Shown one piece after another: positions 6,071 to 40,407 of a stretch of DNA of 64,000 nucleotides. Made by a program: the position numbers and the translations under genes. Every line of letters starts with the position of its first letter. Position 1 is the first letter of the stretch. Source of the DNA: an uncultured Bacteroidales bacterium (GTDB taxonomy: Bacteria > Bacteroidota > Bacteroidia > Bacteroidales > Paludibacteraceae); the NCBI GenBank assembly GCA_902799185.1, contig CADBZO010000004.1, forward strand, positions 485 through 64,484, given 5' to 3'. The notes under the pieces are model-generated. The model was given only the letters and a program-made list of their open reading frames with translations, ran no database searches and was not told the DNA's origin.

Positions 6071-9019
6071 TTATTCAATCATAACGCCCATTGCATTGTA
6101 ACGAACACCGTCACGGATGATGATGAGTTGACCGTTTTCGATAGTCTTGATTATTCCATTGTTCTCTAATTCTACCAGATTAATCTCGGTCGGTACTTTG
6201 TTCGGAGTAATAATATTTGCACGACGGATAGGAGCAGAATTCGCGCCACCATTAATCTGGAAGTAAGCACGGAAGCCCTTGAGTGTTCTGTCTTGTTGCG
6301 GATAAGCCAGTTGGTTATTTGCCATCAATAACAGTACTTGGTCTCCATTATGGAAATCTTTCTGAACGAATGTACCTTGGAAAGTTACGAAACCACCATT
6401 GGTATGATCAGCAGTTTCGCTTTCAATGGTTACATTTTCAAATAATGGGTTAACAATATCCGATGATGTCTTAATAAGAATCGGTGTCCCATTCCAGATA
6501 TCGCTGGCTGTGTTAAATTGCAGGTTAAGGATATCTCCGCTGAGGGTTGCACTGCCCAGCGTGTACAGCTCTACATCGTTACCGAAGATAGCTTTGCATT
6601 TTGCGCTGGAAAGTTTGAACGGCAAGCAGATCGTATTGTACATGCCACCTAAGATAGTGCGAGTCATTTGTACATCAACCGTGTTGTTTAGATCTGCAAT
6701 CCATCTGGTATTGTCGGTGTCTGTGTCTTTCATAACAACGCCTGCCGGAGCTACATACGGAGCAATAGTTACGCTGTGAAGAACACATACAGAATATTGC
6801 TGTTTATTAATGAGTTTGAGAGTGTAATCACCTGCTGCCGGAATGTTTAAATGTTGCGTGAGGCTATAGTTGTTATCCCATTTTGTATCCTCTCCCTCTT
6901 CTGCACTTCTCTTGAGTGTGTTGCCTTCATATAATTCAAAGCGTAAGGTATGTCCTCCGTTTGGCGCGTTAACTGTAATTACCATTTCGCCGGCTTCTGT
7001 AGCATGGAGATTCCATAGAGCATATTCAGTTTCGTTATCCTCATTCGCGTCATATTTGATATCACCGTTTGCAAGATGGGTCATTTTTAGTGTACCGCCA
7101 TCTTCTTTGAGCAGTTTTGCATCTGTGGCAAGTATCTCACCAGGAGCATTCACTATAGCACCACCTTCATAAGAAGCTGCGATATACTCAATACGTCCGT
7201 GAGAATAATTGGTAGTATCTTTGATAAATAATACATAATTGCCTATAGCCAGATTTTCTACATCCAAAGCAAATTTCAGCGGAGTATTGGATGAACCCTT
7301 CTGCACTTTTGATGCGATGTCACTGGTCTCAGTACTATTTCGTAAAATTAATTGGTAAGCATGTGCATTATCACTATTTGCACTAACGGCGAATTTGTAA
7401 TTACCAGCCTTTGCTATACTGATTTTCCATTTACCGTACTGGTCGCGTACATAACCTGAGTGACTGTCATCGGTAAAGCGTAATTCGCCGGCTTCATTAA
7501 CAAAAGCTCTTTCACTCTTTAATGCATCAATAGCTCTCAAAGTATCAGGAATAGCAATAGTTCTACCACCTTCGTAAGTTGCATCAATGAAGAGAACTCT
7601 ACTCTTTGCCCAGTTGTAGAGAGTGCGGACTTTTACGACATAATTACCTGCCGTCAGCTCATATTTACCAGTACTGATAGTTTGTTCTCCAGTACTCATA
7701 CTAGTGTTAGTATTAGAGATCAACTCAGAGGTCTCATCGCTATTGAGGAGTTTAATCTCAAATTTTTGGCTACCATCAGCGCGGAATACGTGAGCAGTGA
7801 AGTTGTAATAACCTGCCTTGGTAACTGAAACTTTCCATTTTGCCCATTCTTTGTCTTCGTAGTCGTAATCTCCACCAGGGTAAAGTTTAAAGGATATAGA
7901 GTCCGGAGCGTCTACAACAGCAGCAGAAATAACACCTGCCGTATCACTTACGATAGCATCAACGGCATTTAATCTGGCAGGGATAGCAATTGTTTGAATT
8001 GCAGTTTCCCAACGCGGGTCACCCCAAATAGCACCATTTTCACGTCTTGCTACAGAAGCATTGTGCATTCTAAAGTTATTATTGGCTGCATCCACAAATA
8101 GCGGATTTCCAGTGAAGTTACCGGAAAGTGCCGGCTTTCCACCACTCTGACGGTGTGCGTGTCTACCTGAATCATATGTTAAGTTGTACGTCAAACAGTT
8201 ACTGATAGTTCCGCCATAGCAACTTGTTGCGCGACGGTCATATGCCACAGGATGAGCAAAGATACAATTGGAAATAGTAACATCACTTATATTGAGTGGG
8301 CGAATCGCCGAATAATCCGAGTTAATTGTCGGATTGTTGTAGAACGTACAATGGTCAACAATTACTTTTACGGCATCCGATGTAGCATCATTGTACGGAT
8401 GAATATCTATAGTGCTTGTATAATTTGCTAACGCGTCCGAATTGGCAATCGTAGTATTAGTTACAGCAAGTTTATCGCACGGGTGTTTGCCTTCAATAGT
8501 TCCTTTTGGAAAATATACAGCATTCTTTTTGTTGTTATGCAAGAAGCAATCTTTAATAATAAGAGAATCTGTATGGGTACTTCCGGCTCCGTAGAAAACG
8601 TAATTCTTTATGCTGTATAACTCGCAGTCTTCTATAACAAGGCTGGTCTTCGAATCGTCATAAAAACGGAAATAATAGTCATAGGAGGTGCCTTGTACAC
8701 TACCATCAAATTTCAAACCTTTTATTTTGATGTTTGCGCCACTTTTAATTTGAGCATACGTGGTCATTTTAATTACAGGATTAGCACCCTCTGCAGCCAA
8801 GATGACTAAATTTTTGTCCAAATAAAGATAATCATCGTACTCATCATAAATACCATCTGCCAAAACAATGGTATCATAATTTTGCTCTGCTGCATACCAA
8901 ATTGCTAAACGCAAATTGTCGTGCGTTTCGAACGGTGTTGTAGGAGTAATGTTTTTCACCGCAGCATTCATCATCATTGAGAGGATCAATGCGGGAAGGA
9001 GTAAGAAAATTTTTCTCAT
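6071..9019 (-). CDS. Secreted beta-helix protein with three CBM6/35-like repeats (982 aa)
   Basis: Signal peptide present. The N-terminal roughly 330 aa are paralogous to 17944-19728 (DGIYDE...NLVILAAEGANPVIK...GDPRWE). Three internal modules of about 130 aa (about 6787-7987) contain KWKVSVTKAGYYNF / KWKISIAKAGNYKF. Confidence 0.8.
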   Translation of the reverse strand: MRKIFLLLPALILSMMMNAAVKNITPTTPFETHDNLRLAIWYAAEQNYDTIVLADGIYDEYDDYLYLDKNLVILAAEGANPVIKMTTYAQIKSGANIKIKGLKFDGSVQGTSYDYYFRFYDDSKTSLVIEDCELYSIKNYVFYGAGSTHTDSLIIKDCFLHNNKKNAVYFPKGTIEGKHPCDKLAVTNTTIANSDALANYTSTIDIHPYNDATSDAVKVIVDHCTFYNNPTINSDYSAIRPLNISDVTISNCIFAHPVAYDRRATSCYGGTISNCLTYNLTYDSGRHAHRQSGGKPALSGNFTGNPLFVDAANNNFRMHNASVARRENGAIWGDPRWETAIQTIAIPARLNAVDAIVSDTAGVISAAVVDAPDSISFKLYPGGDYDYEDKEWAKWKVSVTKAGYYNFTAHVFRADGSQKFEIKLLNSDETSELISNTNTSMSTGEQTISTGKYELTAGNYVVKVRTLYNWAKSRVLFIDATYEGGRTIAIPDTLRAIDALKSERAFVNEAGELRFTDDSHSGYVRDQYGKWKISIAKAGNYKFAVSANSDNAHAYQLILRNSTETSDIASKVQKGSSNTPLKFALDVENLAIGNYVLFIKDTTNYSHGRIEYIAASYEGGAIVNAPGEILATDAKLLKEDGGTLKMTHLANGDIKYDANEDNETEYALWNLHATEAGEMVITVNAPNGGHTLRFELYEGNTLKRSAEEGEDTKWDNNYSLTQHLNIPAAGDYTLKLINKQQYSVCVLHSVTIAPYVAPAGVVMKDTDTDNTRWIADLNNTVDVQMTRTILGGMYNTICLPFKLSSAKCKAIFGNDVELYTLGSATLSGDILNLQFNTASDIWNGTPILIKTSSDIVNPLFENVTIESETADHTNGGFVTFQGTFVQKDFHNGDQVLLLMANNQLAYPQQDRTLKGFRAYFQINGGANSAPIRRANIITPNKVPTEINLVELENNGIIKTIENGQLIIIRDGVRYNAMGVMIE

Positions 9020-9596: not shown

Positions 9597-9604
9597 TAAT
9601 TTTG
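9597..9604 (+). promoter_or_regulatory. Bacteroidota -7 promoter box TAATTTTG
   Basis: Matches TAnnTTTG, 67 nt upstream of the agaS-like ATG. Confidence 0.5.
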
Positions 9605-9619
9605 CGGCGATTTAGACAG

Positions 9620-9649
9620 AGTCAAAAGTCAAAAGTCGAAAGTCAAAAG
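9620..9649. repeat. Tandem heptamer array (AGTCAAA), about 4 copies, in the agaS leader
   Basis: Reads agtcaaa agtcaaa agtcgaa agtcaaa ag. Confidence 0.9.
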
Positions 9650-9670
9650 AAAAATAACACATCTAAAGAT

Positions 9671-10813
9671 ATGAACAACACAGGATTTACCTTCAATGAG
9701 ATTCACCAGCAGCCGGCGATGTGGCGTAAAGAGCTAGAGGCGCTGCTGGCACAGAAAGCAGCCGTGAGTGCATTCATGCACCAGTACCTCACTTCCGAGA
9801 CCGACATCGTTCTGACCGGTGCCGGCACTTCGGCTTTCATCGGCGATGCGATAGAGCCGGTAATGCGCGGCATGTGGCGTAACGTCCGCGCCGTGCCGAC
9901 CACCGACCTGATTACTCACGCCGAGTATCTGTTAGACGCCGAGCGGCCGTTGTTGCTGATCAGTTTTGCACGTTCGGGCAACAGTCCGGAGAGCGTGGGG
10001 GCGGTGAAGCTCGCCAACAAGCTATGCAAGAACGTAGCGCATATCTATATCACCTGCAACAAGAACGGGAAACTGGCGCAGCAAGCAGTCGAAAGTCAAA
10101 AGTCTAAAGTCGAAAGCAATATTCTGCTACTCCTGTTGCCGGAGGAGACGGACGACAAGAGTCTGGCTATGACGAGCAGTTTCTCGACGATGCTGCTGAC
10201 CTGTCTCATGCTGGGGCATATTGACACGCTGGAGCAGGATAAGGAGATGATAGAGAAAGCGGTGAAGAACGCGGAAGCGGTGATAGCCGGCTATGAGGAG
10301 CAGCTCAAGGAGATAGCGAGCCGTCCGTTCGAGCGGGGTGTGTTCCTCGGGTCCGGAGCGTTGAAAGGTATCGCGGAGGAGTGCCACCTGAAGCTACAGG
10401 AGCTGACGGACGGCGCGGTAGTATGCAAGTACGACTCGTTCTTAGGTTTCCGCCACGGTCCGAAGGCCGTAGTGAACAGCAAGTCCATCGTGGTGTATCT
10501 GATGACGGACGAGGAGAAAGTGATGCGGTATGAGCGTGACTTGGTGCGTCAGGTGGACGCCAACAACAAGCCGGTGGCGCAGATCATCGTGATATCGGGC
10601 AGAAAGCCGGAGATGCCGGAGGTGAAGGCTGACTTGGTGGTGGAACTGCCGTACAGCAAGGCAGAGACCGACTTCTACGGTATCGTACCTTACGTGCTCG
10701 TAGGACAATTATTAGGATACTACGCGTCACTCGCGCACGGGCTGAATCCCGATGCACCGAGCGTGAGCGGAAACATACACCGCGTGGTGGAAGGAGTGAC
10801 CATTTACGATTGA
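9671..10813 (+). CDS. agaS: SIS-domain sugar isomerase/deaminase, AgaS-like (galactosamine-6-P to tagatose-6-P)
   Basis: The N-terminus FTFNEIHQQPAMW, LTGAGTS and SFARSGNSPES resemble the AgaS/GlmS-type double-SIS family. ATG at 9671 chosen because the longer ORF start runs through the heptamer array. Confidence 0.75.
   Translation: MNNTGFTFNEIHQQPAMWRKELEALLAQKAAVSAFMHQYLTSETDIVLTGAGTSAFIGDAIEPVMRGMWRNVRAVPTTDLITHAEYLLDAERPLLLISFARSGNSPESVGAVKLANKLCKNVAHIYITCNKNGKLAQQAVESQKSKVESNILLLLLPEETDDKSLAMTSSFSTMLLTCLMLGHIDTLEQDKEMIEKAVKNAEAVIAGYEEQLKEIASRPFERGVFLGSGALKGIAEECHLKLQELTDGAVVCKYDSFLGFRHGPKAVVNSKSIVVYLMTDEEKVMRYERDLVRQVDANNKPVAQIIVISGRKPEMPEVKADLVVELPYSKAETDFYGIVPYVLVGQLLGYYASLAHGLNPDAPSVSGNIHRVVEGVTIYD
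10087..10116. repeat. In-frame heptamer array (AGTCRAA), 4 copies, inside agaS
   Basis: agtcgaa agtcaaa agtctaa agtcgaa encodes VESQKSKVES. Same unit as the leader array at 9620-9649. Confidence 0.9.
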
Positions 10814-10829
10814 CGTCGACCGTCAATCG
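10807..10829. terminator. Perfect 9-bp-stem hairpin overlapping the agaS stop
   Basis: cgattgacg-tcgac-cgtcaatcg. No T-run follows. Confidence 0.3.
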
Positions 10830-10835
10830 TAAATG

Positions 10836-10872
10836 AATGTACGAAGGACAAATGTACGATGTACGAAGGAAA
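10836..10872. repeat. Heptamer array of the ATGTACG / AAGGAC family (intergenic)
   Basis: gaatgtacgaaggacaaatgtacgatgtacgaaggaa uses the same unit family as 939-994 and 23643-23677. Confidence 0.8.
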
Positions 10873-10922
10873 TCCGCCAAACTTGGCGGATAAAACAAAG
10901 ACAAACAAAAACAATACATTTT

Positions 10923-12161
10923 ATGGCAAAGACAGAAAATATCCTCCGTGTGATGGAGGAACGCAAAAAAGCAACAGGAGTACCGATGACGTTATTTGCG
11001 GCATGCCCGAACTCGCTGTCGGTTATCAAAGCGTCGTTCCGTGCGGCGAAACGTAATAACTCACCTATCTATTTTGCTACGACGCTGAACCAAGTGGACT
11101 GCGACGGCGGTTACACCGGCATGACACAGGCGGAGTTCACGAAGATCCTCGCCCGCGAGGCGGCAGCCGTTCATTACACGGGTCCGTACGTAGTAGCCAT
11201 CGACCACGGCGGTCCATGGCTCAAAGACAAACAGAGCATCGAGCGTTGGGACACCGAGCGCGCCATGCAGGGCGTGAAAGAGAGCTACGAGGCAGCCATT
11301 CTTGCCGGCTATGACCTGATACACGTGGACCCGACGGTAGATATTTTCCTGCCGAAAGGCGAAATCATAGACATCCACGTGGTAGTGAAACGCACGGTGG
11401 AGCTCATCAAGCACGCGGAGGATTTCCGCAAGGCGCACAACCTGCCTCCTATCTCCTATGAGGTAGGCACGGAAGAGGTACACGGCGGTCTGGCGGACGA
11501 GAAGACGTTCGACACCTTCCTGGAGGGACTGAAAGCCGGTCTGCACGAGGTGGGTCTGGACGACATATGGCCGTGCTTCATCGTCGGCAAGGTAGGCACC
11601 GACCTGCACACCACGTTCTTCGACGCCGAGGTGGCCCGCAAGCTGACGGCTAAGGTACGTCCGTACGGCAGTTATATCAAGGGTCACTATTCCGACGACG
11701 TGGACAACCCCGAGGACTACCCGAAGGCAGGCATGGGTGCTGCGAACGTAGGTCCGGAGTTCACGATGAACGAATACGAGGCATTGGCGGAACTCGAGGA
11801 AGAAGAGAAGAAACAGTTCGCGGAGGGCAAGGTTGCGCAGCTGAGCCATATGACCGAGGTGCTGTGGCAATGCGTATATGAGAGCAACCGCTGGAAGAAA
11901 TGGCTGCACGGCGAAGAGGTAGGCAAAGACCTGAAGGAGTGCACGCCGGAGCGGCAGTTATGGCTCGTGATGACCGGCTGCCGGTATATATGGCAGAAGC
12001 CGGAGGCGCTGGTAGCCCGCCAAAAGCTCTACGACAACCTGCAGCACTTAGGTATCAACGCCGAAGAGGTGGTGCTGATGCGTATCGAGCGGAACATGGA
12101 CAAATACTACCATGCGTTCAATATCGTTAATTTGAACGACTATTTGAAAGGTGAAAGGTGA
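10923..12161 (+). CDS. GatZ/KbaZ-family protein (tagatose-bisphosphate aldolase accessory subunit / tagatose-6-P 4-epimerase family)
   Basis: LFAACPNS...IYFATTLNQVD...AIDHGGPW...HVDPT pattern typical of GatZ/KbaZ. ATG at 10923 lies after the repeat. The stop TGA lies in the GAAAGGT array. Confidence 0.7.
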   Translation: MAKTENILRVMEERKKATGVPMTLFAACPNSLSVIKASFRAAKRNNSPIYFATTLNQVDCDGGYTGMTQAEFTKILAREAAAVHYTGPYVVAIDHGGPWLKDKQSIERWDTERAMQGVKESYEAAILAGYDLIHVDPTVDIFLPKGEIIDIHVVVKRTVELIKHAEDFRKAHNLPPISYEVGTEEVHGGLADEKTFDTFLEGLKAGLHEVGLDDIWPCFIVGKVGTDLHTTFFDAEVARKLTAKVRPYGSYIKGHYSDDVDNPEDYPKAGMGAANVGPEFTMNEYEALAELEEEEKKQFAEGKVAQLSHMTEVLWQCVYESNRWKKWLHGEEVGKDLKECTPERQLWLVMTGCRYIWQKPEALVARQKLYDNLQHLGINAEEVVLMRIERNMDKYYHAFNIVNLNDYLKGER

Positions 12162-12187
12162 AAGGTGAAAGGTGAAAGGTGAAAGCA
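12146..12187. repeat. Tandem heptamer array (GAAAGGT), 6 copies
   Basis: Direct reading. The array ends one base before the ATG at 12188. Confidence 0.95.
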
Positions 12188-13600
12188 ATGAAGAACACAC
12201 GGATATCCATATACGCGCTCGCGTTCCTGTTCCTCTTCGGTGCGTGCGGGTGCGAGAAGCCGAAGGCGGTAGAGGAGCCTCAGCCCAACGACTCCACCCG
12301 AGTGGAGCCGACCGAGGAGGTAATGAGCAACCCGGATCTGTCGCTCGTCAGTTATGAGATACTGGCGAACGACAACCGCGTGTGGAGCGGGAAGCCGCAG
12401 ATCACCATCCGTATCACGAACAGCAACCCGGGTGCCGTAAAATTAGGTCTGAAGGCAGTTATCACGACCGACAAGAAAGCGGCTGTGCTCACGATAGAGG
12501 ACCACGTGGTGGTGGGTTCCAAGAGTCCGAAGGATGCGGTACTGACGACCGCCGAAACGATGGAGCCCGGTATTTATCACGCCGCCTGTTCCGCTGAGGG
12601 CACCGCTCTGAGCGAGTTCAATTTTGCCATCGACCCGTTCCGGATTACCTCGGTGAATGACAAGCCGGGAGATTTCGACGCTTTCTGGCAGGCAGCGAAA
12701 GACCAGCTGGCGGGCATAGACATGCATGCGACGCTGACGGAGATCCCCGAGCGGAGCACTGCCCAATGCAAGGTCTATCTGGTGACGATGAACTCCATCC
12801 CGGACGGCACGGAAGGCGAGCCGGTGGTTATCCGCGGCTATTACTGCGAGCCGCAGGACGGCAAGAAACACCCGGTGGTCCTGCATTTCTACGGCTATGA
12901 CACCCAAGGCTATACGGGTGCTGTCGATTGTCCGTACGGCGGTACGAACGCCGAGCTGTATCTCTCCCACCGCGGCCAGTATCTCAACAACCGCCCTGCC
13001 GGCACGAACTTAGGCGTGGCGGAGGAGACGACCAATATCTACGGAGACTGGTTCCGGTATCATCTGGGCGAGAAGGAGAGTTATTACTACCGGGGTGCGT
13101 ACATGGACGCCGTGCAAGCAGTGCGGTTCATGGCCACGCGCGAGAGCAGCGACATGACGAAGCTGTTTGCCGAGGGTTCGAGCCAAGGCGGCGCGCTGAC
13201 CTACGCCTGCGCGGCACTGAGCGACTACCCCTTCACGGCTATCGCCGCCAACGTAGCGTTCATGGGCGATTTCGCAGACGCGAAAGACATCGAGAGTCTC
13301 GCCTATTGGGAGATCAGCGACCATTACTGGGTGGACGGAGTGGCTGTCGAACAGAGTCTGCAGTACCTGCCGTATTTCGACATCAAGCACCTGACACCGC
13401 GTATCTCGTGCCCCGTGCTGGCGTCAAGCGGTCTGGCGGACGACGTATGCCCGGCGAGACTGAACCTCGTGCCGTTCAACAACTTAGCCACACCGGCGGA
13501 CCAGAAGGAATACATCATCGAGCCGGAGATGGGACACAGTTTTCCCGCCGGGTGGTGGAACAAGATGAACCAATTGTTCCAATCAAAGATTGGGAGTTGA
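12188..13600 (+). CDS. Lipoprotein, acetyl-xylan-esterase/cephalosporin-C-deacetylase (CE7, AXE1)-like
   Basis: Lipobox LFLFGAC. GSSQGG nucleophile-elbow motif. YYCEP...HPVVLHFYGY resembles AXE1. Confidence 0.65.
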   Translation: MKNTRISIYALAFLFLFGACGCEKPKAVEEPQPNDSTRVEPTEEVMSNPDLSLVSYEILANDNRVWSGKPQITIRITNSNPGAVKLGLKAVITTDKKAAVLTIEDHVVVGSKSPKDAVLTTAETMEPGIYHAACSAEGTALSEFNFAIDPFRITSVNDKPGDFDAFWQAAKDQLAGIDMHATLTEIPERSTAQCKVYLVTMNSIPDGTEGEPVVIRGYYCEPQDGKKHPVVLHFYGYDTQGYTGAVDCPYGGTNAELYLSHRGQYLNNRPAGTNLGVAEETTNIYGDWFRYHLGEKESYYYRGAYMDAVQAVRFMATRESSDMTKLFAEGSSQGGALTYACAALSDYPFTAIAANVAFMGDFADAKDIESLAYWEISDHYWVDGVAVEQSLQYLPYFDIKHLTPRISCPVLASSGLADDVCPARLNLVPFNNLATPADQKEYIIEPEMGHSFPAGWWNKMNQLFQSKIGS

Positions 13601-13659
13601 TAGTTGAGAGTTGAGAGTAGTTGAAAGTTGATAGTTGATAGTTAATAGTTGATAGTTAT
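13594..13659. repeat. Tandem heptamer array (AGTTGAK), about 9 copies
   Basis: gagttga tagttga gagttga ... tagttga tagttat. Ends two bases before the ATG at 13661. Confidence 0.95.
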
Positions 13660-13660
13660 T

Positions 13661-14605
13661 ATGAAACAGTTTGATATCATAGCCTTGGGCGAGCTGAACG
13701 TGGATCTGATCCTCAACCAGATAGAGAGCGAGCCGGAGATAGGCAAGGAGAAGTTTGCCAAACAGATGACGCTGACATTGGGCAGTTCGACGGCTATCTT
13801 TGCCGCCAACGCCGCTGCGTTGGGAGCCAAAGTGGCGTTCTGCGGCATGATCGGCAATGACGCTTTCGGCGACCTGGTAGAGAGCAGTCTGAAAGCGAAA
13901 GGCGTGGACACGCGTTACCTCATCCGCCAGGACCGGTACGCCACCGGCGCGACTATCTGCATGAGTTACGACGAGGACCGCGCGAACCTGACCTACCAGG
14001 GGGCGATGGACTATATGTCCTTAGAGGACATCCATCCGGAGGTGTTCCAAGAGGCGAAGCATATCCATATATCCTCCATCTTCATGCAAAGCGGCGTGAA
14101 GCGCGACTTGATGAAGATTTTAGAGCTTTGCAAAGCCAACGGCGTGACGACCTCACTCGACACGCAGTGGGACCCCGTAGAGCAATGGGACCTGGATTAC
14201 AAACAGGTGCTGCCGCTGCTGACGGTGTTCATGCCCAACGAGACGGAGCTGAAATACCTGACGGGCAGTCAGACCCTGGAAGAGGCCATCGAGAAGATAC
14301 GTCCGTACGTCCACGCCGCCGTCATCAAATGCGGCAGCAGGGGCTCTCTGCTCCTCCGCAAAGGGCAGCCCGACCGGATGCAGGAGGCGCTGCTGAACAA
14401 GCACGTAGTCGATTGCATCGGTGCGGGTGACAGCTTCAACAGCGGTTTCATCACCCGTCTGGCGGCAGGCGACCCGTTGGACCGGTGCCAACAGTACGGC
14501 AACATGACCGGCGCGGTGAACACCACCGCTGCGGGAGGCACCACAGCGTTCACCAGCCGTGAGGACGTAGAGCGCATCGGACGCGAGCGCTTCGGATGGC
14601 AATAA
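13661..14605 (+). CDS. PfkB-family carbohydrate kinase (tagatose-6-P/ketohexose-P kinase-like)
   Basis: N-terminal IALGELNVDL and C-terminal DCIGAGDSFNSGF resemble the PfkB signatures. Confidence 0.75.
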   Translation: MKQFDIIALGELNVDLILNQIESEPEIGKEKFAKQMTLTLGSSTAIFAANAAALGAKVAFCGMIGNDAFGDLVESSLKAKGVDTRYLIRQDRYATGATICMSYDEDRANLTYQGAMDYMSLEDIHPEVFQEAKHIHISSIFMQSGVKRDLMKILELCKANGVTTSLDTQWDPVEQWDLDYKQVLPLLTVFMPNETELKYLTGSQTLEEAIEKIRPYVHAAVIKCGSRGSLLLRKGQPDRMQEALLNKHVVDCIGAGDSFNSGFITRLAAGDPLDRCQQYGNMTGAVNTTAAGGTTAFTSREDVERIGRERFGWQ

Positions 14606-14647: not shown

Positions 14648-17600
14648 ATGAAACGATTCTTACTCCTTTGGACGGTCTGCACGGCGGTGCTGTGCGCGTC
14701 AGCAAGCAACCGTTATGTCTCCCCTACGGGCAGCGACGGCGACGGCAAGTCGTGGGCGAACGCCGTACACACGATAGCCCAGGCTATCTGGAACGTAGGG
14801 GCAGGCGACACGATGTTCATCGCCGAAGGCGTGTATAACGAGGCTATCTCCGCGCAGAGCGGTGCTACCTATTTAGGCGGTTACAATGCCGAGACGGGGC
14901 TTCGCGATCCGGAGCTGTACGAGAGTATCATTGACGGTACGGGGCGTACGTCGTGGTCGCTCGTCAAATATGACGGCGACCCGGAGTCACGCATCACCGT
15001 GGACGGTCTGGTATTCCAAAACGCCAACCATAGCGAGTGGGGCGGCGCAGCGATGTACCTGCGCGGCAACATGACCATCCACCACTGCGTCTTCCGCAAT
15101 AACACCAGCGGTTCGAAAGCCGGTGGGCTGTTTATTGATCCGTCCGGGAGTGAGCAGACCATCATCAGTAACTGTCTTTTTGAGAACTGTAACAACACCG
15201 CGGGAGACCAAGCGGCGGCTATCAGTTGTGAGGAGGCGAACCTGAATGTGCTGGTGGAGAACTGCATCATCCGCGGTTGTAGCGGCGATGTCATGATTTA
15301 TTCGAAACCCGGCATGGTAGTCCGCAACTGCGTGATTTACAACAATCATGCGAATAAGAACGGCTGTATCTACGGTGGCGGCAGTTTCTTCAACAACACC
15401 GTTTGCAACAACACCGGCACGCGTTATGCGGGCAGCCGTACGACAGGACGGGTGACGAACACCGTCTTCTGGGGCAATGTACGTACGGGAAGCGGTACGG
15501 AGTACGTCAATTATGTGGACGCTTCCTCCGGCGCAACGAATAATATCGCCGATGAAGGACAAGGCGTTCCCGTAGGGCTGGCTGCAGACAACAGCGACAC
15601 GGACGGCCCTAACTTCGTCAACCCGACGAATTTCGCAGGTCTGCCGAAGAACGATCTGGAGCGTGCGGCGATGCAGCAAGCCGACTTCTCGCTGACCGCG
15701 TTCTCCGCCAAGCTCATTGACCAAGGTGACAACGCCTCCGCACCGGTGCAAGACCTCCGCGGCGTGGCGCGTCCGAAAGGAACAGCTGCGGACATAGGCG
15801 CCTATGAGTATGACCCGAATGCGGTGAACATCCCCGTCACGGGCGTGAACATCCTCCAGGATACCCTCCGCGTCATCGTAGGCGAGTCGGGTTCGCTCAT
15901 TGCGCAGGTAGCCCCCGTGAACGCCACCAACAACCGCGTGGAATGGACTATCGACGACGCCACCGTGGCTACCATCAAGAACGGGAAGGTGACGGGCCTC
16001 CAGGTGGACACCACCATCGCCCGCGTGAAGACCCTCGACGGCGGTTTTGAGGACTACGCCGTAGTGATCGTCAAACCCGTTCCGCCCAAGTTCTACCCGC
16101 AGGAGGTGCTGGACGCCGATGTCCACTACCGCATCGAGGACTACACCATCCCGAGTTTCATTCCTTTCCTCGTAGCCAAGGAGGAGGCGCGTATCGACAG
16201 TCTGGAGACCAAGGACAATCCCGACATCGCCTTGATAGAGGGCAAGTTAGCGGTGATGCGTACGCGTATTACGGAGCTGCAGCCCAAGGAGAACCCCTAT
16301 AATCCGATAGCCACCATCCACGGCGACCCGGCTACGCATATGGGCTTCTGCTGGTTCACCAACGGCGGCATCCAAGAGGGCGAGGTGCAGCTGGTAGCCA
16401 AAGCCAATGCCACCGAGGGGGACTTCAACGGCGCGGACGTCATCTCCGTTCCCGCACAGACCTCCGACGCTACCCTCCACTACACGCCCATCCAGGCTTC
16501 CGAGAGTCCCAAATACGACATCTGTACGGCTGCCGGTCTGCCCCGCAACACAAAGTTTGACTACGTCAGCCATAAGGCACAGGCCACCACGCTCCAACCG
16601 GGTACCGTCTATAGTTGGCGCGTAGGCTTCAACGGCCACTGGAGCGAGATTGCACAGTTCGTCACCAAGGACGAGAAGCAGGGCAATTTCTCCTTCGTAT
16701 ATATGTCCGACAGCCATATCCAGGACGCCGAATATATCACCGAGGCACGGAAATGCGCCCAGGCGGTAGCCAAGAACGAGAGTGACGTGAAGTTCTGCGT
16801 CTTCCCCGGCGACTTTGTCGATACCGGCGGTGCCACCAACTCCGAGTGGCAGTGGGAGCAGTGGTTCGAAGGCTCTATGCGGGCTATGCTCAACAAGATG
16901 GCAGTAGTGCCTACCGACGGCAACCACGACGACAGCCCGTCGCTCAACTACGACTACCATTTCAACACCGACTGGGGTTTTGCCAATGCCGCCCAGACCA
17001 AGCCGCAGTTCAAAGGCATCACCTACAGCTTCGTCTATGGCGATGTGCTCTTCCTCGTCTATTCGATGCAGGACTGGTGGCGTGCTCCCGGCACCAGCGA
17101 GTCAGGCATGACCTCGCCGTATTTCACCCATGACCTGCGGAACTGGTTCCAGGAACAGATAGCCAAATACCCGGATACCAAATACCGCGTGACGCTGTGC
17201 CACAAGAACGTCTTCTCCGGTGCCGGGCACCACACCGATGACGAGTCGTCGCTCATCCGCGCGATGATGCTGCCTATCTTCAAGGAGTGCGGCATCGACC
17301 TGGCTATCCAGGGACATGACCACTGCTATGAGATCATCGGTCCGGTCAACCCCGACACCCGCGAACTGATTACATCCGCCGTCTCCGGCGTGAATACCGT
17401 GGCGGTGAACACCAACACGAACATGACCGGCAAAGAGGGCGGTACGTTTGTCACCGACGACGGTACGCTCTATTTCATCGGCGCTACCTGCGGACGCAAG
17501 CGTTACTATCCGTATTCACGCGAGAAGATGGAGGCGGAGTACACCACCGACCCGGCTATCCTCTTTGACTACAAGCACCACAACGTGAAGAACCTCTTCG

Positions 17601-17890
17601 ACCTGTTCTCGTCGAAGTTCGGCCAGCCGGGCAGCCCGAGTTACAGCCGCTTCAACGTCACCGGCGAGTATATCGAGATTGTCACCTACAAGACCGACGA
17701 CAACGGCAACAAAGAGGTGTTCAACACCATCCGCGTGAAGAACAGCCGGCCGAGCAATACCGGCAGCGGCATCCCGCAGACCCGGGACAACGACCTGAAC
17801 GCGTGCAGCAAATACCTCCGCGACGGCAAACTGTTCGTGGTAAAAAACGGAGTGACCTATAACGTTATCGGGCAGCGTATTGCCCGGTAA
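14648..17890 (+). CDS. Secreted beta-helix / Big_2 / FN3 / metallophosphoesterase fusion protein (1080 aa)
   Basis: Signal peptide present. Beta-helix-like N-terminus (GDGKSWANA...). Ig-like segment (VTGVNILQDTLRV...). Metallophosphoesterase motifs MSDSHIQD, PGDFVD, DGNHDD and QGHDHCYE. Confidence 0.8.
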   Translation: MKRFLLLWTVCTAVLCASASNRYVSPTGSDGDGKSWANAVHTIAQAIWNVGAGDTMFIAEGVYNEAISAQSGATYLGGYNAETGLRDPELYESIIDGTGRTSWSLVKYDGDPESRITVDGLVFQNANHSEWGGAAMYLRGNMTIHHCVFRNNTSGSKAGGLFIDPSGSEQTIISNCLFENCNNTAGDQAAAISCEEANLNVLVENCIIRGCSGDVMIYSKPGMVVRNCVIYNNHANKNGCIYGGGSFFNNTVCNNTGTRYAGSRTTGRVTNTVFWGNVRTGSGTEYVNYVDASSGATNNIADEGQGVPVGLAADNSDTDGPNFVNPTNFAGLPKNDLERAAMQQADFSLTAFSAKLIDQGDNASAPVQDLRGVARPKGTAADIGAYEYDPNAVNIPVTGVNILQDTLRVIVGESGSLIAQVAPVNATNNRVEWTIDDATVATIKNGKVTGLQVDTTIARVKTLDGGFEDYAVVIVKPVPPKFYPQEVLDADVHYRIEDYTIPSFIPFLVAKEEARIDSLETKDNPDIALIEGKLAVMRTRITELQPKENPYNPIATIHGDPATHMGFCWFTNGGIQEGEVQLVAKANATEGDFNGADVISVPAQTSDATLHYTPIQASESPKYDICTAAGLPRNTKFDYVSHKAQATTLQPGTVYSWRVGFNGHWSEIAQFVTKDEKQGNFSFVYMSDSHIQDAEYITEARKCAQAVAKNESDVKFCVFPGDFVDTGGATNSEWQWEQWFEGSMRAMLNKMAVVPTDGNHDDSPSLNYDYHFNTDWGFANAAQTKPQFKGITYSFVYGDVLFLVYSMQDWWRAPGTSESGMTSPYFTHDLRNWFQEQIAKYPDTKYRVTLCHKNVFSGAGHHTDDESSLIRAMMLPIFKECGIDLAIQGHDHCYEIIGPVNPDTRELITSAVSGVNTVAVNTNTNMTGKEGGTFVTDDGTLYFIGATCGRKRYYPYSREKMEAEYTTDPAILFDYKHHNVKNLFDLFSSKFGQPGSPSYSRFNVTGEYIEIVTYKTDDNGNKEVFNTIRVKNSRPSNTGSGIPQTRDNDLNACSKYLRDGKLFVVKNGVTYNVIGQRIAR

Positions 17891-17943: not shown

Positions 17944-19728
17944 ATGAGAAAAATCTTCTCTTTCCTCGCTGCGATGCTGGTAGCAGTAGTAGCGAATGCA
18001 GCGGTAGTAAACATCACCCCGGACGGAGCAACCGATCTTCGCCACGCAGTAAGGGATGTTGCCGTAGCCGGTGATACCGTCGTTCTGGCTGATGGTACTT
18101 ATACCCAAGGCGGAGACTACACGTATTTTGACAAGAACCTCGTAGTCATGGCTGCTGAGGGGGCTAACCCTGTGGTTAAGTTCACCGTTCCCGCGCAGAT
18201 CAAGGGCGGCGCAAGAGCTGAGTTTATAGGTATCAAGTTCGACATGGAGAATCTGCATGGCCAGAGTTGGTACGAACATCTGATTTACGCTACCGATGCA
18301 ACGGCTGGCAATGTGCTGGTTTTCGACGGCTGCGAGTTCTATAACGACACGTTGAACAACAGCGTCATCTATTGCAGCAGCTCAAATTTACTGGACTCTA
18401 TCATCGTCAGGGATTGTAAATTCCATGATATTATGAAGAGCTGCATCTTTGTAGAGAGTACAAGTTTCAAGGGGCTGCATATATCCAATTCTACTTTCTA
18501 CAATATATCCACCAACATCACAAGTTACTGGGCTGGTGTTGTGGACATCCGGGCTACTGGATGTGAGCTCCATGTAGATCATTGTACGTTCTATAATGTC
18601 ATCCCAATGAACACCGATTACTCCGCTGTCTCCAAAGTTGCAATCGCAAACGGTATTGTCTCCAACTGTATCTTCATGCTGCCCACAGCGCAGGACGGCA
18701 TTCGCGCTATGCGTGGCGTGACAGCGAATAACTGTATTACTTACAATTACCTGAAAGACAGCGGCACAGGTATCCATAGTTCGGTTACCAAGAACAACTG
18801 CACTCAGGTTGACCCGCTCTTCAAGGATGCTGCCAATGCTGATTTCACCCTTCTGGAGAACTCTCCGGCTTTGACGATGAATAATGGTGAGCCTATCGGA
18901 GACCTGAGATGGGTAGCATCAGAAGACCCCCAACCCGAAACCATGACCCTCTACCTCAAACTGAGTGCCGATTGGGCAGGATGGCCTGCTAAATATGCTA
19001 TCTACTATTTCAATGACGCTACCAACGGATGGTCCGATTTCATGACCGCTGTAGAGGGCGAGCAGAACGTCTATGTGGGTACTATTCCTGCTGAATATGC
19101 CGATGACAAGATCATCTTCGTTCGTCTGAACGGCGAGGCAACAGAAGCTAACTGGGATAACAAGTGGAGCCAAACGGTCGATCTGGAGATCCCGGAAGGC
19201 AAAGACTTCTTTACCGTTACTTCCGGAAGCACCGGCAGCGAGTGCAATGGTGTTTGGTCGAAGTATGGCGAGGAGTATGTTCCTGCTCTGGCTAACGGCT
19301 TCTATCTCGTAGGTACGTTCGGCGGTGTAGAGGCATGGAATTATGAAGCTTTGAGTGCTGCAAAACAGTTCAAGGAGAATGAAGAAAACGCTGGTGAGTA
19401 TAAGCTCGAATACACTTTGGCTGAAGGCGATAAGTTCAAAGTCGTTTATGTGGAGAATGATGCTATCAAGACCTGGTATCCGGATGGATCAGACAACGAC
19501 TATGTAGTAGATGCTGCTCATGCCGGCGAGAAGACTATCTATTTCAAGCCCGAATACCAAACAGACTGGAACGGATACGTGTATATTGAGGCGAATGCAG
19601 AGCCCCAACCTACCGCACTCACGAACACCACTTCTGAGACAAAGGCGGTGAAGACCCTCAAAAACGGTATCCTCGTCATCGAGAAAGCCGGGGTGAAATA
19701 CAACGTACTGGGACAAACCGTCCGCTAA
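17944..19728 (+). CDS. Secreted beta-helix protein (594 aa), paralog of the 6071-9019 N-terminal domain
   Basis: Signal peptide present. DGTYTQ...NLVVMAAEGANPVVK...DPLFKDAANADFTL...GDLRW. Shares the C-terminal tail motif. Confidence 0.75.
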   Translation: MRKIFSFLAAMLVAVVANAAVVNITPDGATDLRHAVRDVAVAGDTVVLADGTYTQGGDYTYFDKNLVVMAAEGANPVVKFTVPAQIKGGARAEFIGIKFDMENLHGQSWYEHLIYATDATAGNVLVFDGCEFYNDTLNNSVIYCSSSNLLDSIIVRDCKFHDIMKSCIFVESTSFKGLHISNSTFYNISTNITSYWAGVVDIRATGCELHVDHCTFYNVIPMNTDYSAVSKVAIANGIVSNCIFMLPTAQDGIRAMRGVTANNCITYNYLKDSGTGIHSSVTKNNCTQVDPLFKDAANADFTLLENSPALTMNNGEPIGDLRWVASEDPQPETMTLYLKLSADWAGWPAKYAIYYFNDATNGWSDFMTAVEGEQNVYVGTIPAEYADDKIIFVRLNGEATEANWDNKWSQTVDLEIPEGKDFFTVTSGSTGSECNGVWSKYGEEYVPALANGFYLVGTFGGVEAWNYEALSAAKQFKENEENAGEYKLEYTLAEGDKFKVVYVENDAIKTWYPDGSDNDYVVDAAHAGEKTIYFKPEYQTDWNGYVYIEANAEPQPTALTNTTSETKAVKTLKNGILVIEKAGVKYNVLGQTVR

Positions 19729-19771
19729 GACTGATACTCAGCATGTGCGCTGAGAGTTAAACGAAAAAAGA

Positions 19772-19802
19772 ACAGCCCGCACCTTTCTACGATGCGGGCT
19801 GT
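19772..19802. terminator. Bidirectional rho-independent-type terminator between convergent genes
   Basis: acagcccgca-N11-tgcgggctgt followed by ttatttt, with an A-run on the other side. Confidence 0.7.
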
Positions 19803-19808
19803 TTATTT

Positions 19809-20585
19809 TCAAACTATTCGAACCTCCACCCCAAGTGCCTTCAGTTTGGACGCCATGCCGGTCGGGATGGCGGAGTCGGTAATGATACAATCAAGGTCTT
19901 GGGCATTGGCTATGAACGAATAGCTGCGTTTGTTGAACTTCGACGAGTCAAAGACGGCAATTACTTTGTCCGCCTGCTGAATCATGAGTTGGTTGAGCAA
20001 AGCCTCCTCCAACGAAGGCGTGGATACACCGTTCTCGATAGAGAAGGAGTCCACTCCTAAAAAGAGCTTGTATTTACTGAAATTCCGCAGCACGTTCAGT
20101 GCCAGAGGTCCTACCGTCGAATGACTGTTGGAGCGCACATCCCCCCCGAGCATAACTACCGTGAAACGCTTATAGTTCAGCAACTCCTCCGCAATGTTCA
20201 TGGCATTGGTCAGAATATACAGATTCTGGAACTTATGCAGGTTCTTGGCTATCTCCAAGGTCGTGGTGCCCGAATCCAGCATGATATGGTCACCCTCCTT
20301 GATCAGTTTCACCGCCTCGGCACCTATCCGCTCTTTTTCGCGGAAGTTGAACATCTGTTTCTTGGAAATAGCCACCTCTTCGTTCTGGTTCTCTACGGGA
20401 CGCCGTATGGCACCTCCGCGGGTACGGAGAAGAAGATGCCGGTTCTGCAAGATGGTCAGGTCCTTACGGATAGTCACTTCCGAAATACCGGTTTGACGGC
20501 TCAACTCGGTGACCATCACTTCTTCATTGGTCTCCAAGAGCCTCAAAATCATGGCTCTGCGTTCTTTAGCGGATGAGGGATTCAT
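19809..20585 (-). CDS. DeoR/GlpR-family transcriptional regulator (AgaR-like)
   Basis: MNPSSAKERRAMILRLL...VTELSRQTGISEVTIRKDL forms the HTH, followed by a DeoR C-terminal sensor domain. ATG at 20585 preferred over the 20735 ORF start. Confidence 0.8.
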   Translation of the reverse strand: MNPSSAKERRAMILRLLETNEEVMVTELSRQTGISEVTIRKDLTILQNRHLLLRTRGGAIRRPVENQNEEVAISKKQMFNFREKERIGAEAVKLIKEGDHIMLDSGTTTLEIAKNLHKFQNLYILTNAMNIAEELLNYKRFTVVMLGGDVRSNSHSTVGPLALNVLRNFSKYKLFLGVDSFSIENGVSTPSLEEALLNQLMIQQADKVIAVFDSSKFNKRSYSFIANAQDLDCIITDSAIPTGMASKLKALGVEVRIV

Positions 20586-20609
20586 GGTATTCTTTTGCTT
20601 AATTCGCTG

Positions 20610-20617
20610 CAAAGTTA
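20610..20617 (-). promoter_or_regulatory. -7 box TAACTTTG for the DeoR-family gene
   Basis: The plus strand reads caaagtta. A TTTG -33 element lies 19 nt upstream on the minus strand (20637-20640). Confidence 0.5.
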
Positions 20618-20621
20618 CAAC

Positions 20622-20684
20622 AAATTTTCGAAACATGCAAATAAAAAGTTTCGATCCCTCTTTTTCGAAACCTTGCGAAAGAAC
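20622..20684. promoter_or_regulatory. Putative AgaR-type operator cluster in the divergent promoter
   Basis: Contains aaattttcgaaac, agtttcgat and tttttcgaaaccttgcgaaaga. One site lies between the -33 and -7 elements of the regulator promoter. Confidence 0.5.
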
Positions 20685-20799
20685 ATAATAATAGCCTGCC
20701 GAAAATACAAATAACTGTTTTATAACGTTTTGCAATGGACGAAATGAAGGATGTGCTTTTTAGCATAATAAAATATACTATATATTAAAATAAATGTAG

Positions 20800-26890: not shown

Positions 26891-26916
26891 GAAAGTTGAA
26901 AATTGAAAGTTGAAAG
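26891..26916. repeat. Short heptamer array (AAGTTGA / AAATTGA)
   Basis: Lies between the SusC stop and the SusD ATG. Confidence 0.8.
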
Positions 26917-26924
26917 GAGTTATT

Positions 26925-31812: not shown

Positions 31813-31860
31813 CCCCGCATCGACCATGCATAAACCCCGCATCGACCATGCATGGTCGAT
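31813..31860. repeat. 22-bp direct duplication ending in a perfect 20-bp palindrome
   Basis: ccccgcatcgaccatgcat occurs twice. atcgaccatg/catggtcgat lies at 31841-31860. Confidence 0.85.
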
Positions 31861-31878
31861 CTTAATACCCCTACTATC

Positions 31879-35275: not shown

Positions 35276-35400
35276 CGGCATCCGATGCCGGTTGTTTCGT
35301 CTTTGTTTATCATGCCTATTTTTATCTCCCCCTGCTTTCCTGCCCAGCCTTGCTTATCCCTGCTTATTCCTGCCTAAAATGGCCTATTCATGCAAATAAA

Positions 35401-35432
35401 TTTGCATATGTCCGAAAAATATTGTACCTTTG
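35401..35432 (+). promoter_or_regulatory. Promoter TTTG-N20-TACCTTTG (copy 3)
   Basis: tttgcatatgtccgaaaaatattgtacctttgcac, about 40 nt before the ATG at 35473. Confidence 0.6.
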
Positions 35433-35472
35433 CACCCGAATAGATAACCAGAAAGAAAAGAAAACTACTACA

Positions 35473-36834: not shown

Positions 36835-36870
36835 AATCGGCTGTCACCGCCCATCCATCCACCGAGCGAT

Positions 36871-36903
36871 GAGCGGGAGAAGAGCGGGAGAAGAGCGAGA
36901 GAT
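36871..36903. repeat. Three tandem 11-bp units (GAGCGGGAGAA)
   Basis: Reads gagcgggagaa gagcgggagaa gagcgagagat. Intergenic. Confidence 0.9.
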
Positions 36904-36950
36904 GACCGAGACACAAAACCGCCGAAAAAAGAAAAAATTGGCAAAAAGAA

Positions 36951-37790: not shown

Positions 37791-37804
37791 ATAATATACC
37801 CAAA

Positions 37805-40404: not shown

Positions 40405-40407
40405 ATA

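Follow-up and report, generated by a model that had tools for sequence, protein, structure and literature searches.

A 64,000-nt stretch of DNA from an uncultured Bacteroidales bacterium (contig CADBZO010000004.1, positions 485 to 64,484; hereafter the window) encodes two large proteins, A and B, in each of which a right-handed beta-helix is joined to a metallophosphoesterase domain with the architecture of the purple acid phosphatases (PAPs). We tentatively regard them as glycan-targeted phosphoesterases of a polysaccharide utilization locus (PUL) for a polymer rich in alpha-galactosamine (GalN) or N-acetylgalactosamine (GalNAc), be it Pel-like or a comparable exopolymer or cell-wall polymer of microbes; our confidence in this reading falls somewhat short of even. 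It is based on a conserved core with intact ligands, modules of polymer-binding type, an export signal, the embedding of the genes in a GalN-type PUL and the presence of several paralogues per locus.

Architecture and spread of the two protein families

The window had been interpreted previously from its letters and open reading frames (ORFs) alone. The coordinates and lengths given by this sequence-only reading were exact on re-reading: protein A is encoded by ORF 14648-17890 on the + strand (1080 aa) and protein B by ORF 2526-5810 on the - strand (1094 aa). Both are real, conserved proteins and not chance ORFs. More than 300 relatives of A were found in the database; the 120 best have identities of 66% or more, and almost all of them are full length. 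The more than 470 relatives of B show the same full-length pattern. The sole name carried by the relatives of either protein is 'MAG: metallophosphoesterase [Paludibacteraceae bacterium]', where MAG denotes a metagenome-assembled genome. A genome scan placed A orthologues in about 38 species-level genomes, the closest being RUG12032 (90% identity). All of these MAGs come from rumen or foregut and belong to Paludibacteraceae or 'uncultured Bacteroidales', and the window is therefore assigned to an uncultured rumen Paludibacteraceae bacterium. A and B are just 20-26% identical, in short stretches. They are parallel architectures built on two separate phosphoesterase lineages, and not recent duplicates.

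Protein A (14648..17890, + strand) was delimited by its ORF, Pfam and NCBIfam matches, homologues and a structural model, and consists of a beta-helix, a Big_2 domain, an A-type PAP-like metallophosphoesterase core and a C-terminal tail. It opens with a putative signal peptide (aa 1-20, ...LCASA|S, 14648..14707), read by eye and modelled as a helix at residues 2-15. The right-handed beta-helix follows (aa 21-390, 14708..15817) and ends in a choice-of-anchor Q segment (NCBIfam NF041518; choice_anch_Q match at 356-389), with a sub-threshold DUF4957 match at 190-256. The next domain is a Big_2 immunoglobulin (Ig)-like domain (aa 392-478, 15821..16081; Pfam match at 396-453, E 3e-7; PDB 7quz, E 1e-12), which was absent from the earlier list of parts. 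A helical linker with a conserved DYT(I/V)PS(F/W) motif (aa 484-545, 16097..16282), recognized in the core alignment and the representative search, forms the first element of the A-type core. The core continues through a PAP_N beta-sandwich (aa 550-673, 16295..16666; Pur_ac_phosph_N, PF16656, E 1.4e-10), the metallophosphoesterase catalytic domain (aa 683-894, 16694..17329; Metallophos, PF00149, E 7e-15) and a C-terminal part (aa 895-1035, 17330..17752) that is conserved across the A-type core family.

Protein B (2526..5810, - strand), delimited by Pfam, its model and Foldseek, is composed of a DUF5123 beta-helix, a B-type PAP-like metallophosphoesterase, Ig-like and CBM11-like modules (CBM, carbohydrate-binding module) and a tail. 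The DUF5123-type beta-helix (aa 20-290, 4941..5753; Pfam match at 178-287, E 5e-13) carries the motifs DHCTFYN and GDPRW. It is followed by a PAP_N beta-sandwich (Pur_ac_phosph_N, aa 313-395, 4626..4874; E 2e-13) and by the metallophosphoesterase domain (aa 403-620, 3951..4604; Metallophos match at 403-589, E 3e-12), in which a variant ligand set was recognized from family invariants and which matched wheat PAP phytase 6gja at E 1e-5 in a sequence search of the PDB. About 480 further residues had not been described before. They contain Ig/FN3-like and CBM11-like beta-sandwich modules (aa 685-1045, 2676..3758) with Foldseek matches to CBM11 structures 6r3m and 1v0a (template modelling score 0.70-0.72, target-normalised) and also to 2c26, and Pfam CBM_11 is found in the corresponding region of the Barnesiella orthologue of B (E 2.5e-9).

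The AlphaFold2 model of A, built with 32 homologues, has a mean predicted local distance difference test score (pLDDT) of 71.8. It is good in the helix (pLDDT ~80-90) and Big_2 domain and patchy in the catalytic domain, and it shows, in order, the right-handed beta-helix (21-390), the Ig domain, the helical linker, the beta-sandwich and the alpha/beta phosphoesterase domain. In the AlphaFold2 model of B the helix has pLDDT >90, residues 410-511 of the metallophosphoesterase domain fall below 50, and several beta-sandwich modules follow; its Foldseek matches comprise PAPs, alginate lyases of polysaccharide lyase family 6 (PL6; 7dmk, E 1e-9) and CBM11. The phosphoesterase part of A matched plant PAPs and lupin PPD1 (E ~1e-13), PhoD (E 1e-7) and GAP50 in the PDB.

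Metal-ligand motifs and relation to purple acid phosphatases

The two catalytic-half domains claimed for both proteins were recovered. PF00149 scored 56.3 bits in A and 47.9 bits in B against a gathering cut-off of 21.5 bits, and the FN3/PAP-N-like segment was matched by PF16656 (cut-off 30 bits) with 42.1 and 51.0 bits, respectively. The complete metallophosphoesterase motif set that had also been attributed to both is present in A, where the metal-ligand residues are all in place: D688-x-H690, G721-D722-x-x-D725, G758-N759-H760-D761, H852 and G889-H890-D891-H892 are invariant in 32 of 32 homologues. For B the attribution was too broad. Its motifs are D410-x-H412, G438-D439-F-V-S442, G472-N473-H474-E475, H562/H563 and G601-D602-D603-H604, so that two depart from the canonical form, with Ser442 in GDxxS and Asp602 for the first His of GHxH (GDDH). 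Both residues are invariant among 32 family members, and the Barnesiella orthologue keeps the last motif as A-D-E-H. Ser442 sits at the position of the PAP Tyr and of the second Asp of calcineurin. The ligand set of B is thus best described as a family-wide variant and not as decay.

In PAPs the Tyr of GDxxY gives the Fe(III)-tyrosinate centre. This residue is replaced by Asp in A (GDFVD725) and by Ser in B (GDFVS442), and the first motif is DxH in both (SD688SH in A, SD410IH in B) instead of the GDxG of PAPs. Since the Tyr ligand is absent, neither protein appears to be a true PAP, and of the earlier label 'purple-acid-phosphatase-like' it is the PAP-like architecture and fold that stands. 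The ligand set of A is that of generic binuclear metallophosphoesterases, a group that includes many diesterases.

Plant PAPs (kidney bean 2qfp, wheat phytase 6gja, lupin PPD1 3zk4) share with A and B an FN3-like beta-sandwich followed by a binuclear metallophosphoesterase domain, and are the best fold matches of both (E 1e-13 to 1e-9). Apart from the missing Tyr, the DxH in place of GDxG and, in B, the Asp for the first GHxH His, they differ in that they are only 12-17% identical to A and B, which, unlike PAPs, bear large beta-helix, Ig and CBM modules and lie within a bacterial PUL. Sequence and family-profile searches of the PDB with A matched only the Big_2 domain; no PAP was found, and GAP50 appeared at E 0.06. 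With no solved PAP detectable by sequence, a family profile included, the catalytic domain of A is considered very divergent. A tblastn search of plasmids with A returned PAP-like segments only, 24-29% identical, from Bacillus, Paenibacillus and others.

A PAP-like fold is common to A and to PhoD of Bacillus subtilis (2yeq; Foldseek E 1e-7). PhoD is a phosphodiesterase/phosphatase reported to degrade wall teichoic acid in phosphate starvation. Since it is secreted and its target is a cell-wall polymer with phosphate linkages, it provides a precedent for the kind of substrate proposed here. The two proteins share 9% identity, the metal site of PhoD differs, and PhoD has neither a beta-helix nor a PUL context. 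A PhoD domain gave no above-threshold match, the nearest signal being a weak PhoD_N score for a paralogue.

In the viral fold library BFVD the best match to A was G3MA93, Gp352 of Bacillus phage G (866 aa; E 6e-18 over 517 columns), and a 1117-aa 'phosphatase' of a crAss-like phage also matched A structurally. PAP-like domains therefore occur in large phage proteins. The other viral matches were mostly Big_2 tail and decoration proteins, Gp352 being the sole long one.

The beta-helices are related to a non-catalytic PL6 domain

The right-handed beta-helices proposed for the N-termini of A and B are confident in both models. Their kind and role, described earlier as a glycan-binding or glycan-cleaving fold of the polysaccharide lyase/hydrolase type, needed refinement. 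In Foldseek searches of the PDB the helix of A matched Rhombotarget A (9cdv, E 6e-5) and a rhamnogalacturonan lyase of polysaccharide lyase family 9 (PL9; 5olq/5olr, E 3e-4, 14-15% identity), some homologues bear precomputed PF22842 and PF13229 matches, and the fold of the B helix matched PL6 alginate lyases. Five DUF5123-type helices, those of B, of its Barnesiella orthologue, of the metagenomic protein P0242 and of the other two helix proteins in the window, were combined into a profile. Over its whole length it matched the C-terminal domain of PL6 lyases (BcAlyPL6 430-744, E 1e-31, with a common VDHCT motif; Patl3640, E 9e-14; AlyGC, E 9e-13), whereas the catalytic N-terminal domain of PL6 gave only 12.6 bits (E 0.56). 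B has one helix, followed by PAP_N, and no PL6 catalytic N-terminal helix. The helix of A aligned with the DUF5123-type helix at an hhalign probability of 97.9% (E 5e-13, 186 columns).

The C-terminal helix of the two-domain PL6 lyases (BcAlyPL6 7dmk, AlyGC 5gkd, Patl3640 7o7t and BoPL6) is thus the homologue of the B helix, and the A helix is related to it. In A and B, unlike in these lyases, the partner of the helix is a phosphoesterase and not a PL6 lyase domain, and the helix lies N-terminal to it. The C-terminal domain of BoPL6 is catalytically inactive; it binds polyguluronate and also the catalytic domain, whose active site it reshapes with a switch in mode and specificity (PMC12992946). 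Because the specific homologue is this non-catalytic domain, we favour binding or active-site shaping over glycan cleavage for the helices of A and B. A literature search for DUF5123/DUF4957 yielded one passing mention.

The conservation of the individual domains of A is in line with such a role. Mean identity to A among 36 orthologues is 78% for the metallophosphoesterase domain, 74% for PAP_N, 60% for the beta-helix and 54% for Big_2, a pattern that would fit a conserved catalytic core with a faster-evolving recognition module and thereby also favours binding or active-site shaping by the helix.

In the closest relative (L013:10001-13243 compared with window positions 14648-17890; 90% identical overall) the helix is 76% identical and all other domains 94-99%, which suggests recombination or fast divergence confined to the helix.

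It was also considered whether the beta-helices might be the catalysts, acting as glycanases or lyases, with the phosphoesterase-like domains serving, at least in B, as degenerate binding or structural modules. The fold matches to PL9 and PL6 would agree with this, as would the invariance of DHCTFYN and GDPRW among DUF5123-type helices that are otherwise 29-41% identical, and the lack of two canonical residues in the metallophosphoesterase domain of B. We nevertheless consider it very unlikely. The specific homologue is the non-catalytic domain of PL6 and the catalytic one scored just 12.6 bits (PMC12992946), so that a lyase reading of the helices was set low. The metallophosphoesterase domain is the most conserved domain of A, and its ligand positions are invariant in both families. 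Beta-elimination, moreover, needs uronic acids, of which the locus shows no sign.

Putative export signals and a shared C-terminal tail

The N-termini of A and B are hydrophobic and, read by eye, look like the signal peptides that had been proposed, with putative ends at ASA|S and LHA|A, respectively. The C-termini may be a second element of export. A motif scan found a tail of ~25 aa with the pattern K-x-[LI]-x-x-G-x-L-x-[IV]...G-x-x-Y-x-x-x-G in exactly the four beta-helix proteins of the window and in no others: in A (KYLRDGKLFVVKNGVTYNVIGQRIAR, 17804..17887, + strand), in B (KFLQDGHLFVRRNSHIYTTIGQIVK, 2529..2606, - strand), and in two further helix proteins, at 19648-19725 and 6074-6151. 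The first of these, a 594-aa DUF5123 beta-helix protein (17944..19728, + strand), is encoded directly downstream of A; the second (6071..9019, - strand) is a 982-aa DUF4957+DUF5123 beta-helix protein with repeated CBM-like modules.

Models for the C-terminal domain (CTD) of type IX secretion system (T9SS) substrates (Por_Secre_tail/TIGR04183; the four tails against NCBIfam at E up to 10) did not match A, B or the tails. At the position of the B tail, however, the Barnesiella orthologue has a full Por_Secre_tail (PF18962 E 4e-11, TIGR04183 E 4e-10). Stand-alone relatives of the A core end in typical type A CTDs, and the A tail aligns with the first half of these. In rumen Paludibacteraceae the tail may be a sorting signal of truncated or alternative form, and export of A and B by the T9SS route, or descent from proteins so exported, is plausible.

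A conserved SusC/SusD locus

The proposal of a glycan locus was borne out: the window contains adjacent genes for SusC (CarbopepD_reg_2 + Plug, 23880-26888, + strand) and SusD (26910-28649, +), with the gene of a glycoside hydrolase family 36 (GH36) homologue directly upstream (630 aa, 21982-23874, +), in a gene order that is conserved. The locus thus reads as a conserved SusC/SusD PUL. The GH36 homologue clearly matched 'A type blood alpha-D-galactosamine galactosaminidase' (PDB 9awt, residues 124-625, E 6e-49), an enzyme described in PMC11762096.

A is the fifth gene of a co-oriented run (AgaS-GatZ-CE7-PfkB-A-594-aa DUF5123 protein, gaps of 17-53 nt). The four genes preceding it form a catalytic arm (9602..14605, gaps of 17-48 nt) encoding an AgaS-family SIS protein (9602-10813, +; family match 374 bits), a GatZ/KbaZ-like protein (10833-12161, +), an esterase of carbohydrate esterase family 7 (CE7; 12179-13600, +) and a PfkB sugar kinase (13649-14605, +), for which no subfamily could be assigned. 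The GatZ/KbaZ-like protein reaches only 86 bits against the KbaZ/GatZ equivalogs (cut-offs 569-707), yet is 87-100% conserved across loci; it might, speculatively, have another role, e.g. that of a tagatose-6-phosphate epimerase. The run ends at a hairpin with a 13-bp stem (19771..19803), likely a terminator, between the 594-aa gene and the convergent gene of a DeoR-family, AgaR-like regulator (19809..20735, -; NCBIfam AgaR 249 bits, and Pfam). A sigma-70 promoter scan was set aside as not informative for Bacteroidota, and the hairpin at 19771-19803 alone was used. Between the regulator and the GH36 gene lies the gene of an Amidohydro_2 protein (20832-21923, +). Downstream of SusD are genes for a hypothetical protein (28688-29458, +), a 483-aa DUF4874+DUF4832 barrel (29486-30937, +), an EamA transporter (30939-31811, +) and a 543-aa hypothetical protein (31852-33483, +). 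Encoded next to B are an NahK-like N-acetylhexosamine 1-kinase (417-1559, +; PDB 4wh1, E 3e-57) and a CBM9_2 protein (1917-2516, +; Pfam).

The conservation of this arrangement was followed by tblastn of the window proteins against fetched loci, 38 of which contain A. The order AgaS-GatZ-CE7-PfkB-...-A-(DUF5123)-AgaR-Amidohydro_2-GH36-SusC-SusD was found in about 36 of the 38 A species loci, with synteny of the catalytic arm in at least 30. The PUL core AgaR-Amidohydro_2-GH36-SusC-SusD-hypothetical-DUF4874/4832-EamA is present in more than 25 genomes, as seen in loci centred on the DUF4874/4832 gene, and that gene lies on at least 18 A contigs. The NahK-like and CBM9_2 genes are co-located with B in two loci (L014 and L031). 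In three Barnesiella loci the order PfkB-Amidohydro_2-GH36-SusC-SusD-DUF4874/4832-...-EamA is followed by a B orthologue that is ~40% identical.

The phosphoesterase genes are often multiplied. Many species carry two further A-type genes in tandem between PfkB and A, with up to four PAP-type genes per locus; in one case (L004) the additional genes encode a 799-aa helix+PAP_N+metallophosphoesterase protein and a 606-aa PAP_N+metallophosphoesterase protein. Two metagenomic proteins combine the types. In P0244 (1369 aa) a B-type PAP module comes after a complete A-type protein, and in P0242 (1542 aa) a complete A-type protein comes after a B-type DUF5123 helix and FN3-like repeats. A-type and B-type modules are thus linked, and are shuffled among relatives.

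The gene of the 982-aa protein has 40-42% GC and lies between neighbours of 50-58% GC, and in related loci its counterparts are only 26-33% identical. The gene appears to encode a surface protein and to be variable or a recent acquisition.

The putative glycan and its possible phosphate

Because homologues of GH36, NahK, AgaS/AgaR and DUF4832 are encoded in the locus, the imported glycan is probably alpha-GalN/GalNAc-rich and Pel-like. The pel locus of Streptococcus intermedius encodes SIR_1591, a TIM-barrel protein (468 aa) that has a C-terminal DUF4832 domain and disperses Pel-dependent aggregates like the PelA hydrolase (PMC12345266). The 483-aa protein of the window shares the C-terminal domain and is of similar size. 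For the known degraders of Pel and galactosaminogalactan, and for the FpGalNase GH36 (9awt), the likeness to the locus lies in the neighbours of A and B and not in A and B themselves.

Streptococcal and clostridial pel clusters uniquely carry, beside the DUF4832 gene, genes for a secreted CotH-like kinase, a polyphosphate polymerase and a membrane protein, all of them phosphate-related according to the authors (PMC7112168, PMC12345266). We take this as a hint of phosphate on Pel-like polymers. Among the species named in the pel-locus literature is Streptococcus gallolyticus, whose group is common in the rumen.

A phosphate-bearing glycan, or a glycan-associated phosphate target, is a reasonable inference since A and B are putatively secreted, their link with the PUL is conserved (~38 species for A; into Barnesiella for B) and B has a CBM11-like module. 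The earlier suggestion of a sugar-phosphate substrate is retained in this form, but not its candidate teichoic acid, as the neighbouring genes point to an alpha-GalN/GalNAc polymer; a literature search for PULs with teichoic acid and phosphodiesterases found none, and the one useful match of a second search was a paper on the 'PUS' loci of Flavobacterium. These loci, which are induced by low phosphate, bring together SusCD-like pairs, phosphatases and the FI-FIII proteins, which are secreted and weakly homologous to pectate lyases/polygalacturonases (PMC8115612). The activity proposed for A and B had been called not a standard one for a PUL. It is unusual, but phosphatases beside SusCD in the PUS loci are a precedent (PMC8115612). 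By description, the window locus resembles them in joining a SusCD-like pair, phosphoesterases and secreted beta-helix-like proteins, and some PUS proteins have T9SS domains. In PUS, however, helix and phosphatase are separate proteins, control is by the Pho regulon and glycoside hydrolases are lacking, whereas the window locus has GH36, the DUF4874/4832 barrel, sugar-catabolic genes and an AgaR-like regulator.

Under the reading of A and B as glycan-targeted phosphoesterases, the helix (of the PL6 C-terminal domain/DUF4957-DUF5123 kind), together with Big_2 in A and the Ig-like and CBM11-like modules in B, would hold the polymer, and these non-catalytic modules may also shape the neighbouring active site. 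The binuclear metallophosphoesterase domain of PAP-like architecture would hydrolyse phosphate esters (mono- or diesters) on the polymer; alternatively, A and B might clear phosphate polymers bound to the glycan. Removal of phosphate, which would otherwise block the glycosidases or the transporter, would open the glycan to depolymerisation by the GH36 galactosaminidase-like and DUF4874/DUF4832 hydrolases. The fragments would enter through SusCD, and the NahK-like, AgaS-like, GatZ-like and PfkB enzymes would catabolise the amino sugar under the AgaR-like repressor. We infer here how the proteins are exported, which metals they contain, which glycan is targeted, whether and in what chemical form it bears phosphate, and every catalytic activity. 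The recruitment of up to four phosphoesterases by a GalN PUL would be explained if a Pel-like polymer were decorated with phosphate or associated with polyphosphate.

Several observations weigh against this reading. AgaS and AgaR both score below their curated cut-offs (374 bits against 529, and 249 bits against 260). No KbaY-type aldolase was present among the window ORFs scanned. The models of the A and B metallophosphoesterase domains are of low confidence in places. The kinship of the DUF4874/4832 protein with SIR_1591 is one of a shared Pfam domain and similar size, and in a genome scan with the DUF4874/4832 profile all 80 loci kept were close relatives, almost all from Bacteroidales or other Bacteroidota, with no Gram-positives reached. 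Gene content alone hints at phosphorylation of Gram-positive Pel, and we know of no phosphate-bearing GalN polymer from the rumen. In several other Bacteroidales the AgaS-GatZ-PfkB-AgaR-SusCD-DUF4874/4832 set occurs, but the surrounding 10 kb contain no PAP-type gene. PAP-type genes are thus missing near many such cores, so that the phosphoesterases would be accessory to the system and not a requirement of it.

The 550-aa core of A is, furthermore, common on its own, in proteins of ~600 aa that have a signal peptide and a T9SS tail and occur in Prevotella, Xylanibacter rarus, Parabacteroides acidifaciens and Paludibacter (L211-L290). In these proteins the first motif is D-x-Q instead of D-x-H. 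Among the neighbours of the stand-alone cores in 80 genomes, no family was common to more than 9 loci and no functional clue emerged. Stand-alone cores without conserved neighbours fit a generalist phosphoesterase. A and B might accordingly be general extracellular phosphate scavengers or PAP-type phytases, with a position in the PUL that is incidental or regulatory and with helix and CBM modules that anchor them to particulates. Phytate is abundant in ruminant feed, wheat PAP phytase is among the top fold and sequence matches, and the widespread A-type cores lack a conserved context. The phosphate-starvation PUS loci of Flavobacterium likewise join SusCD-like pairs with phosphatases and secreted, weakly pectate-lyase-like proteins (PMC8115612). 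This explanation is nonetheless clearly unlikely in our view. A is co-oriented, with gaps below 55 nt, with cytoplasmic sugar-catabolic genes under an AgaR-like and not a Pho-type regulator, the arrangement is conserved in ~36 species loci and, for B, across two families, and a locus may hold up to four PAP-type genes. An inositol-catabolic set is absent, the nearest signal being the sub-threshold IolC-like score of the PfkB kinase, far under the cut-off, and the phytase reading was set low on both counts.

The phosphate might also belong to a polymer other than the glycan. Pel binds extracellular DNA, and a cationic, partly deacetylated GalN polymer could hold this or another anionic polymer such as polyphosphate or (lipo)teichoic acid. 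A and B would then be matrix-clearing phosphodiesterases, nucleases or polyphosphatases, tethered to the glycan by their binding modules and exposing it to the glycosidases. The ligand set of A speaks for such a function, being that of generic metallophosphoesterases capable of diesterase or nuclease activity and not that of PAP monoesterases, as do the Foldseek matches to PPD1 (a diphosphonucleotide phosphatase/phosphodiesterase) and PhoD, and the large Bacillus phage G protein that is the best viral fold match (E 6e-18). A weak hint in the same direction comes from Bacillus plasmids, on which distant relatives carry the annotation of a fusion to 'phosphodiester glycosidase' domains. Gram-positive pel loci carry a polyphosphate polymerase, and the PL6 C-terminal domain homologous to the B helix binds a polyanion, polyguluronate. 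On the other side, no nuclease, nucleotide-uptake or glycerol-phosphate catabolic genes are present among the locus ORFs, and the sequences do not discriminate between a bound polymer and covalent phosphate. We regard a separate polymer as unlikely to be the target.

The individual parts are of known kinds: a PAP-fold metallophosphoesterase, a helix of the PL6 C-terminal domain/DUF5123 type, Big_2, CBM11 and a SusCD PUL. Literature and database searches found no described example of these parts in one polypeptide, and none of such a combination conserved in a PUL apparently aimed at alpha-galactosamine polymers; a literature search for a PUL for Pel or galactosaminogalactan also found none. 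The pairing of the PL6 C-terminal domain with a phosphoesterase in an apparent GalN/Pel PUL is noteworthy to the specialist, its function being wholly predicted.

If A and B are indeed glycan-targeted phosphoesterases, they would show that gut Bacteroidota handle phosphate on microbial glycans by fusing an alginate-lyase-derived polymer-binding helix to a phosphoesterase, and the locus would be the first SusCD system described for alpha-galactosamine polymers such as Pel. Polymers of this kind hold many bacterial biofilms together. The phosphate association of Gram-positive Pel would become testable, and candidate biofilm-dispersal enzymes and a route for the recycling of bacterial exopolymers in the rumen would be at hand. 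If the reading fails, the analysis still provides an annotation for two large families that so far bear just the label 'metallophosphoesterase' and are conserved in dozens of uncultured rumen species.

A more specific proposal is that the locus is a system for a phosphate-modified Pel-like alpha-GalNAc/GalN exopolysaccharide of Gram-positive rumen bacteria, and that A and B are the first glycan-targeted phosphoesterases with a helix of the PL6 C-terminal domain type and a PAP fold. We consider it unlikely. Were it true, the CotH-like kinase and the polyphosphate polymerase of pel loci would furnish Gram-positive Pel with covalent phosphate or with polyphosphate bound to it, and the new PUL specificity would amount to biofilm-matrix predation.

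A defence island elsewhere in the window

A defence island of low GC content (33-43%) occupies positions 35350-48710 of the window. It encodes a Schlafen/AlbA_2 + HATPase_c_4 protein, a DUF2971 protein, an FRG-domain protein, a RhuM-family protein and a type I restriction-modification system, whose HsdR (43934-47500) has a C-terminal Peptidase_S24 domain. An integrase gene lies between hsdM and hsdS of this system, possibly in connection with hsdS shuffling.

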